Source: Vezdaea acicularis (lineage: Eukaryota). From it: 63,774 bases of DNA. The position numbers and the translations under genes are program-made. The DNA is taken from assembly GCA_026025075.1 (NCBI GenBank), contig JAPEUI010000095.1, forward strand, positions 1 to 63,774, written 5' to 3'. Positions 58,896 to 63,774 of the stretch are shown in pieces (within the stretch, counting starts at the first letter, position 1; every line of letters starts with the position of its first letter). Below the pieces are notes generated by a model. The model had not been told where the DNA came from and did no database searches. It was given only the letters and a program-made list of their open reading frames with translations.

Positions 58896-60765
58896 ATGTA
58901 AGAAAAATTGCATCTGTTTGCAAGTCTGTCATGTCTTCTCGTAACTGACCCGAACACAGGGAGGCTTTTAGTGGAATCCATCTCGATCTTTCGAAGAAAG
59001 CAGGCAAATGCGCGGTTTCTGAAGCAGGTATAGGATGGAAGACAGCTGAAGGTAGCGACATGTGGACTCTTGAGAAATCAAATATAGCGAGTGCCCAATG
59101 GAGCAGAGCTGCAAGGGGGTTTGAACTGAAGATAATCGCAAGAGATTCGACTGTGGTCCAGCTTGACGGATTTGACGAAGATGTGGGTAGCACGGTATTA
59201 CCGCAGGATCACTTTGCTAACGTGTTTTAGAACCTGGACTCCTTGAGCAAAGTATTTCAACTATGGTTTGGTATCAAGATTGAGAAGATTGAGCACGCTA
59301 CAAGGGGCTGGAACTGGGGCAAGGGTGTCTTTGAGAAATCTGAGTTGACATTCAAGGTCCACAACAAACCTGCCTTTGAGATACCATATTCAGAGATCTC
59401 GAATACAAATCTCGCTGGACGAAATGAAGTAGCTGTTGAGTTCTCATTACCCGGAAACGGAAACGAGACTGGGACGAATGGAGCGATGGGCGGAGCTCGA
59501 GGTCGAGGTAGAAAAGCCGGTGGGGGCGGAGATCAACTGGTGGAGATGCGTTTCTATATTCCGGGTACGACGAAGAAAAATTGGGATAATGATGACGAGG
59601 TGCGCTCTGAAGATGGCGAGGAAATCAACGCGGCGAATCAATTCTACGATACCTTGATGGAGAAGGCCGATATTGGTGATGTTGCAGGAGACACATTCGC
59701 TACGTTCCAGGACGTACTTCATCTCACACCTCGTGGTCGGTTCGATATAGACTTATACGAAACTTCATTCCGACTTCGAGGCAAGACTTACGATTACAAA
59801 ATTCAGTACGAGTCCGTCAAGAAGTTTTTCCTCCTCCCGAAGCCCGACGACCTCCACACGCTCATTACTATTGGGCTGGAACCTCCACTGCGCCAAGGCC
59901 AGACCAGATATCCATTTGTGGTTATGCAGTTCAAGCGGGACGAGGAAACCATCATCGACTTAAACATGACGGAGGAGGTATTGAAGGACAAGTATGAAGG
60001 AAGACTCCAAGAACACTACACAGGCCCTACGTCTCAAGTTATCGCTCAGGTTTTCCGCGGGCTGGCGAAGAAGAAAGTTACCACCCCGTCAAAGCAATTC
60101 TCTAGGTAAGAGACATCGAGCTATACCCTTGATCGTTGCAAATACTGATACTCGCTCATAGCTATCACAATCAATCAGGGGTCAAATGCTCTATCAAAGC
60201 AAACGAGGGGCACGTATACTGTCTCGACAAGGCGCTAATGTTCGTCCCCAAGCCTGCAACCTACATTTCATTTGATAATATATTAGATATCACAATGTCG
60301 AGAGTGGGCGGTGCAGTATCGGCGAGCAGGACATTCGATATCTCTGTTGCCTTGAAGGGAGATGCTCAACCCATCAGTCTTAGCAACATCAACCGCGAAG
60401 AGCAAATCCCTCTCCAGGATTTCTTCAAGTCCAAGGGTCTCAAGACGCATAACGAGATGGACGACGACGGTGGTGCTATACTTGCTGCGGCAATGGAAGA
60501 TGCTGGTATGTCAAGTGATGACGAAGTTGCGCCTGCTCGCGCGGATCGTGGTAGCGCCGATGAGGATGACGAGAGCGTCGACGAGGACTTCCATGCTAGC
60601 TCAGACTCCGATGTGGCCGAGGAATACGATTCGGCTCATTCGAGTAGTGGAGGTAGCGATGCAAGTGATGCGGAGATGCAGGATGCTGAGGCGGACGATG
60701 TGGACGACGATGAAGAGGAAGTTCAGGAAGAGAGGCCGAAAAAGAAAGCTAAGACAGGGAAATAG
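58896..60765 (+). CDS. POB3: FACT complex subunit Pob3/SSRP1
   Basis: AT|G start split by intron 58898-58959; further introns ~59183-59230 and ~60106-60161. GWNWG, TPRGRFDID, LRQGQTRYP, acidic tail and PKKKAK NLS. Confidence 0.95.
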
Positions 60766-61300: not shown

Positions 61301-62767
61301 ATGAGTGCACCTCAAGCAAACGAAGCCGAGAAGAACATCGAAATATGGAAGGTCAAGAAATTGATCAAGCGTCTCGAGGCGGCCCGAGGCAACGGGACCT
61401 CGATGATTTCACTTATCATTCGTGAGTTATGTTGATATTTTCAAAAATTCCTCGACTTAGACTGATAAATGGAAAGCTCCCAAGGATCAAGTCTCCCGGG
61501 CGGCTAAGATGCTGGCTGAAGAATTCGTACGTGCAATTGCGTCGCACACAACGAATGTGGCGATATTGACATTTATAGGGGACTGCCTCGAATATCAAAT
61601 CCCGCGTAAATCGGCTATCGGTGCTTTCTGCAATCACCTCAACTCAGCAGAAGTTGAAGCTTTACTCTAAAGTCCCAACTAATGGCCTTGTTGTGTACTG
61701 CGGCGAAATCATCACTTCCGAGGGCAAGGAACGCAAAATTAATATTGACTTTGAGCCTTTCAAGCCGATCAATACATCGCTCTATCTCTGCGACAACAAG
61801 TTTCATACTGAGGCATTGAGCGAACTGCTTGAATCAGACCAGAAATTTGGCTTCATTATCATGGATGGAAATGGAGCGCTGTTTGGGACCCTTAGTGGCA
61901 ACACTAGGGACATCCTTCAGAAGTTCTCCGTCGACCTGCCTAAAAAGCATGGCAGAGGTGGTCAGTCTGCCCTTCGTTTCGCTCGGCTTCGAGAGGAAAA
62001 GCGGCACAATTACGTTCGAAAGGTTGCCGAGCTCGCCGTTCAAAACTATATTACTAATGATAAAGTAAATGTTGCCGGTCTTATTCTAGCTGGGTCTGCG
62101 GATTTTAAGAATGATCTCAACCAGTCCGATATGTTTGATGGACGACTTCAGGGGAAGGTCATCAAAGTTGTCGACGTTTCCTATGGAGGGGAAAACGGCT
62201 TCAACCAAGCTATTGATCTCTCTGCCGAGACTCTGAGCAATGTCAAATTCATCCAAGAGAAAAAGCTTATCAACTCGTACTTTGCTGAGATTAGTCAAGA
62301 TAGCGGCAAAGTCTGCTACGGGGTTGAAGACACTTTAAAGGCACTAGAACTTGGAGCAGCGGAGACTTTGATAGTATTCGAAAATCTTGATGTCACTCGC
62401 TGGTCTCTCAAGACTGCTGCAGGCTCAGAAGTAATTCTACATACGAGCAAGGAGCAGGAGTCCTCCAACCGGGAGATGTTCATGGACAAGGATACAGGCC
62501 AGGAGATGGAGCTTGTCGAGCAGATACCTTTCTTGGAGTGGCTGGCAGAAAAATACAAAGATTTTGGCGCCACTCTTGAATTTGTCTCCGACCGCTCCAG
62601 CGAAGGGAATCAATTCGTTAAGGGCTTTGGAGGAATAGGCGCAATTCTGAGATACAAGGTCAACTTTGAGCAGTTGGCCGATTTCGATGATGACGAGGAT
62701 GAATTCTATGACGGTATGCTCTTGTTAAGACACAAGCAGCTTCTAATGCTAACACTGCTTAGATTGA
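61301..62767 (+). CDS. SUP45: Eukaryotic release factor 1 (eRF1)
   Basis: TASNIKS, YLCDNKF, GRGGQS motifs. Introns ~61422-61476, ~61527-61578 and 62714-62762; stop TGA at 62765-62767. Confidence 0.97.
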
Positions 62768-62986
62768 CAATATCGCAACCTCGCCAGGGGCGAGGAGACG
62801 TATCCAGACACGCCTGCAGGGCGCAGTTTGACGGCGGTCCCTTCAGAGCGGCATTATGATACTCTGCACACTCTTGATGAGAACCGGCCTCCTAAGTTTA
62901 CGCACTTGGAGACTTGGCTGCTTCCCAATGCTGGTGAATCCGCGTCCACCGCTGCATACTAAACATGGAAATGCCTTCGGGCTTTG

Positions 62987-63039
62987 GTGAGTGTACTAGC
63001 TTCATCCTCGCCAATTGCACAAAGCTTACAATACTGCAG
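62987..63039 (+). promoter_or_regulatory. Predicted 3'UTR intron of the eRF1 mRNA
   Basis: Donor GTGAGT at 62987, branch-like GCTTAC at 63024, acceptor CAG at 63037-63039; 53 nt, similar to other introns in this window. Confidence 0.75.
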
Positions 63040-63774
63040 CGACGCCAAATAGCGTTTGTGAAGGTGCGGGCTTGGGAGTCATTGGGGGGGGATTTTTGAG
63101 AATGAAAAAAGCGTGGCTTCTTGATTTTTGATCTTATAACCGGGGCTACAAAGATTCGTGTTCGCTCCTTGTACTGAGTCTTGAGCCCACTTCCAACTCT
63201 GCTGTTTGAAACTACTTACATCAAAAATATTCTCTATTCCACATCCGCTTTGTATGTGTTGGAAGTGGCCAAAATCTCGTACTCCTTCCTTAGATCTTGG
63301 TAATGCATGGGTTGTAACACTTTGGCAGCCAGCCCCAGCACTTCCCTAGCGGATGGATCAATAGAGCCGATCCTCTGGGCCCTTCCTTTGGTACTCTGGG
63401 CGAGGTAGCCATGGACCTCTCGAAAGTAGTGAGTCTAGCTGCATGATGTTGCTCAGTTGGGCCTCACATTTATGCGACGCCACGCCGGGCGACATCGCCA
63501 TACATCAAGGCGCCTATGGTTGTAGCCTGATTCGCGGTAGATTGACTTCGCTCGGGCTGTTTGCACTGTTTATGAATGCGAGTCAGCCTGCAGAAGAGCC
63601 TAGATTCCTAAGCAAAGTCCTGGGCTTGTGGTGTCTCAAGTGCATTCGACCGGTTTCGAAGTGACAACAAAATTCATTTCGTTGCCCCCACTATGATGTT
63701 TTTGTTCAACCGGGGGAAGCCTGTTTCATGATCGCCATCCCAAAAATAAATGGCTGGTGTAGAAAACGCCGGTC

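Follow-up and report, generated by a model that had tools for sequence, protein, structure and literature searches.

The 3' end of the eRF1 gene of Vezdaea acicularis as a probable readthrough and nonsense-mediated decay feedback device whose sequence features are conserved in related loci

Positions 1 to 63,774 of contig JAPEUI010000095.1 of Vezdaea acicularis (GenBank assembly GCA_026025075.1), a stretch of 63,774 nucleotides (nt) which we call the window, contain a gene for the release factor eRF1. The stop codon of this gene is followed by a long open reading frame and then by an intron-like stretch, which raises the question of whether the 3' end of the gene is a switch by which eRF1 controls its own mRNA through stop codon readthrough and nonsense-mediated decay (NMD). 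A first-pass annotation of the window had proposed exactly this. A circuit of the same kind is known for the plant gene eRF1-1, for which Nyiko et al. 2017 (PMC5397192) describe a leaky stop-CAA context, a next stop codon less than 25 nt before an intron of the untranslated 3' region (3'UTR), a partial rescue of the mRNA from NMD by readthrough, and lower readthrough when eRF1 is overexpressed. The analyses described here support the proposal, since every sequence feature that such a switch needs is found in the window and is conserved in 27 related loci. We regard it as probable that the eRF1 3' end is a readthrough-plus-NMD feedback device in a gene of the filamentous-ascomycete type.

The eRF1 coding part is located on the forward strand (61301-62767) and consists of four exons (61301-61421, 61477-61526, 61579-62713 and 62763-62767), separated by introns of 55, 52 and 49 nt. 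The spliced translation has 436 residues and contains the NIKS and GGQ motifs, and exon 3 alone matches the Pfam families eRF1_1, eRF1_2 and eRF1_3 (E values 4e-15 to 3e-47). Hence, by its three domains and both motifs, the product is eRF1, the class I eukaryotic release factor. Relatives were collected by scanning metagenome contigs with exon 3, and the best 80 of 380 confirmed relatives were kept. The set used for most comparisons comprises 28 loci, namely the window and 27 close, intron-poor fungal genes (L001-L026 and L043); the other 53 of the 80 served as outgroups. The tblastn identity of eRF1 to the 27 close loci is 82-91%. Over the last 80 residues these loci show 75-92% identity, except for L007 and L026, which remain at 73% because an extra intron interrupts the match. 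The set includes near-duplicates (L007/L026, L019/L021/L023, L013/L014 and L009/L020), and because of these and the shared phylogeny of the loci, the counts given below overstate the number of independent lineages.

The stop codon of the eRF1 gene is the TGA at 62765-62767, followed by CAATAT, in agreement with the TGA-CAA context noted by the first-pass annotation. It is reached only once the last coding intron (62714-62762, 49 nt, GTATGC..GCTAAC..TAG), which ends 2 nt before the stop codon, has been removed. The mRNA then reads ..TAT GAC G^AT TGA C, in which the caret marks the intron boundary, and the restored C terminus ...EFYDD is that of the 15 of the 28 loci without this intron. The remaining 13 loci, which belong to different sub-groups, have the intron at the identical place (AG^AT TGA), and this distribution suggests an old intron that was lost repeatedly. 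The heptamer GAT-TGA-C (62762-62768), made up of the last Asp codon, the UGA stop and the C at position +4, is identical in all 28 loci; the last Asp codon is GAT throughout, and the Asp codon ahead of it is GAC in some loci and GAT in others. The triplet at positions +4 to +6 is CGG in ten loci, CAA in seven, CAG in five, CTG in three, CCA in two and CAC in one. TGA-C is thus present in 28/28 close loci, whereas a C at +4 is found in 19 of the 53 outgroup loci, ten of which read TAG CAATCA, the readthrough signature published for plant eRF1-1 (Nyiko et al. 2017). By its +4 C, the main stop of eRF1 is in a readthrough-prone context and is predicted to be leaky.

Several observations on the more distant loci can be added. 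The ten loci with TAG CAATCA (L056, L057, L068-L070, L073, L074 and L077-L079) have 39-123 open codons after the stop, and their plant-like neighbours (L060-L067, L071 and L072) show TAG-G or TAA-G/T, the contexts reported for eRF1-2-like genes. More distant eRF1 genes with TGA-C and 15-49 open codons were seen in L034, L051, L053, L044, L058, L028, L045, L054 and L040; L034 and L051 read TGA CAATTT, and all nine are on short contigs, possibly derived from transcripts.

Downstream of the main stop, the frame of the window stays open for 64 sense codons (62768-62959, ending in ...STAAY) up to the TAA at 62960-62962, which is followed by A, so that the predicted readthrough extension occupies 62768-62962. 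An open frame of 64 codons had been claimed before, and early in-frame stops in orthologs had been named as evidence that would speak against its use. Such stops were not found, and at least 49 codons are open in 28/28 loci. Before splicing, the extension frame has a median of 70 codons and a minimum of 49, as against 18 and 5 for the other two frames, and in 26 of the loci it exceeds both of them. The frame after the stop is, on this comparison, selectively kept open across the 28 loci.

The length of the extension (49-198 codons) and also its sequence differ between loci. The ratio of nonsynonymous to synonymous differences (pN/pS) over the whole extension ranges from 0.35 to 1.1 and is mostly 0.5-0.9, with the pair L013-L014 at 0.35 as an example; most of the extension therefore appears to behave as a spacer, as in plants. 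No Pfam match was obtained on the extension, nor on five antisense or downstream open reading frames. One block differs from this picture. The peptide RPSPLRS, which is present in nine loci, has a pN/pS of 0.17 with all seven third positions variable and with arginine switches between CGN and AGG; its distance to the second stop is 12 codons in eight loci and 18 in the ninth. The block was chosen after inspection, which biases its pN downward. High synonymous divergence with kept residues argues that the extension is translated in those lineages. The loci with RPSPLRS(V)M are L004, L009, L011, L012, L016, L017, L020, L024 and L043, and similar blocks of the form xS.LR(N/S/H)(V/M) follow the late intron in L001, L002, L005, L006 and L022; the intron is thus on different sides of a possibly homologous peptide block in different clades.

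Another conserved segment within the extension is the hexamer TGACGG (62829-62834, forward strand), which is in the +1 frame of the extension and is read as L-T-A in the extension frame. In one alignment, (C/T)TGACGG is aligned in 10 of 11 sequences, each of the ten with ACG as its Thr codon. The hexamer, about 64 nt after the main stop, is also present in L002, L005-L008, L010, L022 and L025, and in L004, L013 and L015 as TGACGA or TGACGG. It repeats the UGA-CGG form of the main stop; taken with the downstream pyrimidine tract and YAG, it resembles a fungal branch point and 3' splice site.

The stretch that would give the switch its downstream exon junction is located at 62987-63039 (forward strand). 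It reads GTGAGT...gCTTACaatactgCAG, is 53 nt long, and has a GTGAGT donor, a CTTAC branch-like site and a CAG acceptor. Counted from the final base of each stop codon, the predicted junction is 219 nt past the TGA and 24 nt past the TAA. This is the spacing given by the first-pass annotation, whose coordinates for the stop, the 64-codon frame, the TAA and the intron all proved correct. Late introns of the relatives were called by hand curation helped by pattern scans, with strict and relaxed patterns counted separately, and splicing is predicted throughout. An intron-like stretch is present at the corresponding place in 24 of the 28 loci, and the window donor aligns with the donors of L025, L007 and L010. 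When donors were screened for automatically between -60 and +40 nt relative to the second stop of the unspliced frame, the strict pattern gave 11/28 loci and the relaxed one 20/28, where the simulated density leads to an expectation of about one.

The position of the second stop relative to this donor follows a simple pattern. In nine loci it lies shortly before the donor, at 24 nt in the window, 34 nt in L007, L026 and L010, 23 nt in L016 and L020, 22 nt in L012 and L043, and 21 nt in L009. In twelve other loci the frame reaches or crosses the donor (L001, L002, L003, L005, L006, L008, L013, L014, L015, L018, L022 and L025); of these, L003 shows a donor only and L018 has a GC-AG intron. In the eight loci for which this was computed (L001, L002, L005, L008, L013, L014, L015 and L025), the frame ends 15-147 nt past the junction. 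L019, L021 and L023 each have two possible donors; with one of them the stop precedes the donor, and with the other the frame runs across. Wherever an intron was called, 146-400 nt separate the main stop from the donor downstream of it, which is more than the roughly 50 nt beyond which a junction after a stop triggers NMD, and no second stop more than 34 nt upstream of the donor was found among these loci. The ortholog comparison of stop-to-intron spacing that had been suggested as a check thus came out in favour of the switch. In addition, and in contrast to the C at the main stop, a purine directly follows the second stop in all 12 loci that either have this stop ahead of the junction or are without an intron call. 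By sequence, the second stop is too near the predicted junction for NMD, or beyond it, in the window and its relatives.

Two loci were considered as direct evidence of splicing and rejected. L018 was examined as a possible spliced mRNA, yet it carries a GC-AG intron-like stretch (approximately 1815-1870, G^GCAAGT..GCTAAC..TCTTAG) and is probably genomic, and L011, which is without an intron call, is on a contig that runs 2.3 kb beyond the gene. Plant loci used as a positive control of the geometry script did not yield the layout; their introns are long, and the unspliced frame ends within them.

A further feature, absent from the first-pass annotation, is a GC-rich hairpin shortly after the stop. 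It starts exactly 11 nt after the TGA (spacer 62768-62778) and is formed by CCUCGCC-AGG-GGCGAGG (62779-62795, forward strand), with a stem of 7 base pairs (bp) and a loop of 3 nt. The 41-nt segment 62765-62805 folds with -12.9 kcal/mol (z-score -2.41), and 2 of 200 shuffles folded equally well. A covariance model built from 19 sequences, R1, matches at the eRF1 stop in 26/28 loci, once each and on the forward strand (E values 3e-11 to 3e-4), with a spacer of the same length in all 26. The match in the window covers 62762-62802 (39.7 bits, E value 1e-7), and R1 has no other forward-strand match in these 63.8 kb. R1 missed L013 and L014; in these two loci another stem, GGCUC/GAGCC, is found three bases farther downstream. 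Among the 53 outgroups nothing scored better than an E value of 0.98, and neither the ten TAG CAATCA loci nor the nine distant TGA-C eRF1 loci were matched; the leaky UGA-C may be older than the hairpin. Rfam gave no match in 62600-63300 at E values up to 1.

The two arms pair in 99.3% of the cells of the model-fitted alignment, versus 37-61% when the partner is slid, and this helix is also the one predicted by RNAalifold, whose covariation term is only -0.2. Four of the six stem pairs never vary, and one changes from C-G to U-A in two sequences. The helix is, at the level of the alignment, supported by the retention of both arms around a variable loop and not by covariation. Third codon positions within the arms (CUC, GAG, xxC) are nearly invariant, the loop varies, and the arms are 5 or 8 nt apart, so that this spacing differs by no more than one codon. 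Together, the invariant third positions and the codon-sized change identify the hairpin as a likely RNA element inside a maintained reading frame, and its conservation points to RNA-level constraint in that frame. We consider that the hairpin is probably the main readthrough stimulator. A conserved block YCCAGA (62808-62813 in the window) is situated about 8-10 nt 3' of the hairpin in most of the 28 loci and encodes Pro-Asp or Pro-Glu in the extension frame. A second stem further downstream, UGACG/CGUCA, was seen by eye in L001, L008, L022 and L002, and not in the window, L005 or L010; it was dropped as unproven.

These features can be combined into the following circuit. Splicing of the 53-nt intron (62987-63039) would deposit an exon-junction complex upstream of the junction, at about the 20-24 nt given for this complex in PMC5397192, and so about 195 nt downstream of the UGA. 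With plentiful eRF1, translation would terminate at the UGA (62765-62767), the complex would stay on the mRNA, and NMD would degrade it. With scarce eRF1, a near-cognate tRNA would decode the UGA more often, helped by the invariant GAU-UGA-C context and the GC-rich hairpin 11 nt downstream. The readthrough ribosome would then translate the 64 codons up to UAA-A, a tight stop located 24 nt ahead of the junction, strip the exon-junction complex and thereby stabilise the mRNA. The 64 codons would thus serve as the path that brings the ribosome to the exon-junction complex, and UAA-A as a safe stop. The architecture of this layout and its conservation are read from the loci themselves, and for splicing, level of readthrough, sensitivity to NMD and dependence on eRF1 dose we infer from the plant and Neurospora work.

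A more specific version of this circuit is possible, to which we attach only tentative weight. The eRF1 stop region in filamentous ascomycetes might be a dedicated recoding cassette, composed of GAU-UGA-C, the 11-nt spacer and CCUCGC/GCGAGG, that is recognised sequence-specifically and tunes readthrough to the supply of eRF1, with the peptide blocks giving the extended eRF1 a role of its own. Sequence-specific recognition, for example by the ribosome, eRF1 itself or another factor, is suggested because the stem is conserved in sequence and not only in pairing. If this were true, and if the hairpin is not part of the Neurospora paper, it would be a cellular readthrough stimulator that has not been described.

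A number of results weigh against the feedback device. For the window by itself, the open frame is within chance (p about 0.07-0.12): when the 300 nt behind the stop were shuffled 20,000 times, 64 or more codons stayed open in 1405 cases, and 12% of the 447 TGAC sites on both strands precede at least 64 open codons. The same holds for the intron-like stretch, as the loose intron pattern has a density of 0.41 per kb in simulated sequence, corresponding to a chance of about 11% for a 300-nt stretch, and such patterns are no more numerous in the window than in the simulation. The branch site of the window, CTTAC, deviates from the fungal form CTRAY, as does that of L009, which has the same form. 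The extension of the window is without the conserved C-terminal peptide blocks of the relatives, RPSPLRS included, and near the donor it looks shortened and frame-shifted when compared with L022 and L005, in which ..GL(V/L)HG^ abuts the donor. Four of the 28 loci have no intron call, L004 and L011 because no convincing intron was seen, and L017 and L024 with contigs that continue for only 125 and 81 nt past the second stop. The stem of the hairpin is nearly invariant and its covariation weak, with one compensatory pair among six and a score that 11 of 500 shuffles reach. Finally, the 27 relatives are related by descent, so their number overstates the independent support. Since the features of the window alone are not significant, the weight of the argument comes from the relatives.

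These weak statistics, the non-consensus branch site and the diverged C-terminal part of the extension are what would be expected if the features of the window were chance or decayed remnants, with an efficient stop and a 53-nt stretch that is no intron. Yet the window keeps GATTGAC, the 11-nt spacer, the 7-bp hairpin detected by R1 and TGACGG; its GTGAGT donor is at the place of the donors of the relatives, and its second stop falls within the 21-34-nt zone seen in other lineages. Pure chance is unlikely because every conserved element has been kept, and we regard this explanation as very improbable indeed. A related possibility accepts the intron and takes it as making the mRNA a constitutive NMD target or as an aid to export or expression, without meaningful rescue, and the open frame as a by-product of RNA constraints. 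The nucleotide-level conservation of the hairpin, CCAGA and TGACGG is in line with it, and 3'UTR introns trigger NMD in certain filamentous fungi according to PMC5397192. Without translation, however, at least 49 open codons in all 28 loci, loop insertions and deletions only in multiples of three, and second stops at most 34 nt before the donor would be unexpected, as would protein-level selection on one block of the extension. This explanation is, in our judgement, improbable.

The stop codon could also be bypassed by alternative splicing instead of readthrough, if the donor at 62714 were joined to the AG at 62845-62846, skipping both the stop and the hairpin. In the window this join would be in frame with the extension (G^AG CGG.. 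= E-R-H-Y-D), the acceptor follows a CTGAC-like motif and a pyrimidine tract (TTGAC..CCCTTCAG), and many relatives have a pyrimidine-rich stretch and YAG after (C/T)TGACGG, like a fungal 3' splice site. Such splicing cannot be general, because 15/28 loci lack an intron before the stop. Moreover, L002 has no GT between the stop and the motif, the first AG past the motif is out of the extension frame in L007, L008 and L006, and such splicing would not account for the invariant UGA-C or the hairpin; we consider this route highly improbable. A different purpose of the readthrough itself is also conceivable, namely that the leaky stop mainly makes a C-terminally extended eRF1 isoform with its own function and that the effect of the intron on stability is secondary. 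The low pN/pS of RPSPLRS in nine loci, the motif PPARQDLGLVHG^RSxLRxMVxV, which extends across the intron in L001, L002 and L005 and has related forms in L006 and L022, and a whole-extension pN/pS below 1 in most pairs (0.35 for L013-L014) all agree with a functional protein. On the other side, values of mostly 0.5-0.9 and up to 1.1 and lengths from 49 to 198 codons with differing sequences fit poorly with one; the blocks were picked after inspection, so the low pN comes partly from block selection, and the window extension ends early, has none of these blocks and belongs to no Pfam family. In plants, the extended protein showed no activity in termination assays, and the extension lacks conservation (PMC5397192). 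As the main purpose of the leaky stop, an isoform therefore seems rather unlikely to us. A functional isoform may exist alongside the feedback circuit in the relatives, and for the window it is weakly supported.

The statement of the first-pass annotation that the mechanism is not new holds, as the kind of circuit is already known from plants (2017) and Neurospora (2020). Reference 62 of PMC10578600 is a Neurospora crassa paper (Kurilla et al. 2020, FEBS Lett 594:3504) whose title claims autoregulation of erf1 by readthrough and NMD; its authors reportedly proposed similar circuits for many fungi. As far as that title goes, the Neurospora case shares with the present one the gene, a leaky stop and a 3'UTR intron, the latter two as predicted features in the window, and, judged by likeness, the subphylum. 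The resemblance to eRF1-1 of Arabidopsis and seed plants includes the +4 C, the CAA triplet, a long open frame, a poorly conserved extension and the short distance between the next stop and the 3'UTR intron, less than 25 nt in plants and 24 nt to the predicted intron in the window. The plant genes differ in having UAG-CAAUCA, with no stem-loop named in PMC5397192, whereas the window has UGA-C and a hairpin at a fixed distance. In about half of the fungal relatives, unlike in plants, the frame crosses the junction, and some fungal extensions have blocks conserved at the protein level.

The main stop and its hairpin also resemble the viral type II readthrough signal of alphaviruses, tobraviruses and coltiviruses, which consists of UGA-CGG or UGA-CUA and a stem-loop about 8 nt downstream (PMC3542737, Firth and Brierley 2012). 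Common to both are the UGA, the +4 C (CGG in 10/28 loci) and a stable stem-loop shortly downstream. In contrast to the viral signal, the eRF1 gene is cellular, its hairpin is compact (6-7 bp) and not extended, and the spacer is 11 nt; moreover, the viral signal makes a polymerase fusion, whereas the purpose at eRF1 is likely control of mRNA stability. What may be new is the hairpin at a fixed distance with a stem invariant in sequence, together with the rule that the second stop is at most 34 nt before the donor or beyond it. A search of the open literature, with subscription journals outside its range, found no paper on this stop rule, on a hairpin at fungal eRF1 stops or on the circuit in Aspergillus.

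As the upstream neighbour of eRF1, on the same strand, the window contains a gene for a histone chaperone of the FACT type, SSRP1/Pob3 (59231-60765). Its product matches the Pfam families SSrecog, PH1_SSRP1-like and the Rttp106-like middle domain and has an acidic tail, and the gene has at least one intron, near 60110-60132.

The dose of eRF1 sets the fidelity of every stop codon read in the cell, and its homeostasis therefore matters broadly. The readthrough-plus-NMD layout, which is proven in one plant and reported in one fungus, appears to have been kept across many filamentous-ascomycete-like lineages. Standard annotation of the gene would give the 436-residue protein only and would miss the predicted 3'UTR intron, the hairpin and the predicted 501-residue readthrough product. 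The hairpin at its fixed 11 nt would be a compact cellular readthrough element and is open to direct testing. In these lineages the second stop may move, with the intron before or after it, and where it precedes the junction it does so by at most 34 nt; this stop-to-junction rule would constitute a natural test of the principle that the terminating ribosome must reach the exon-junction complex.

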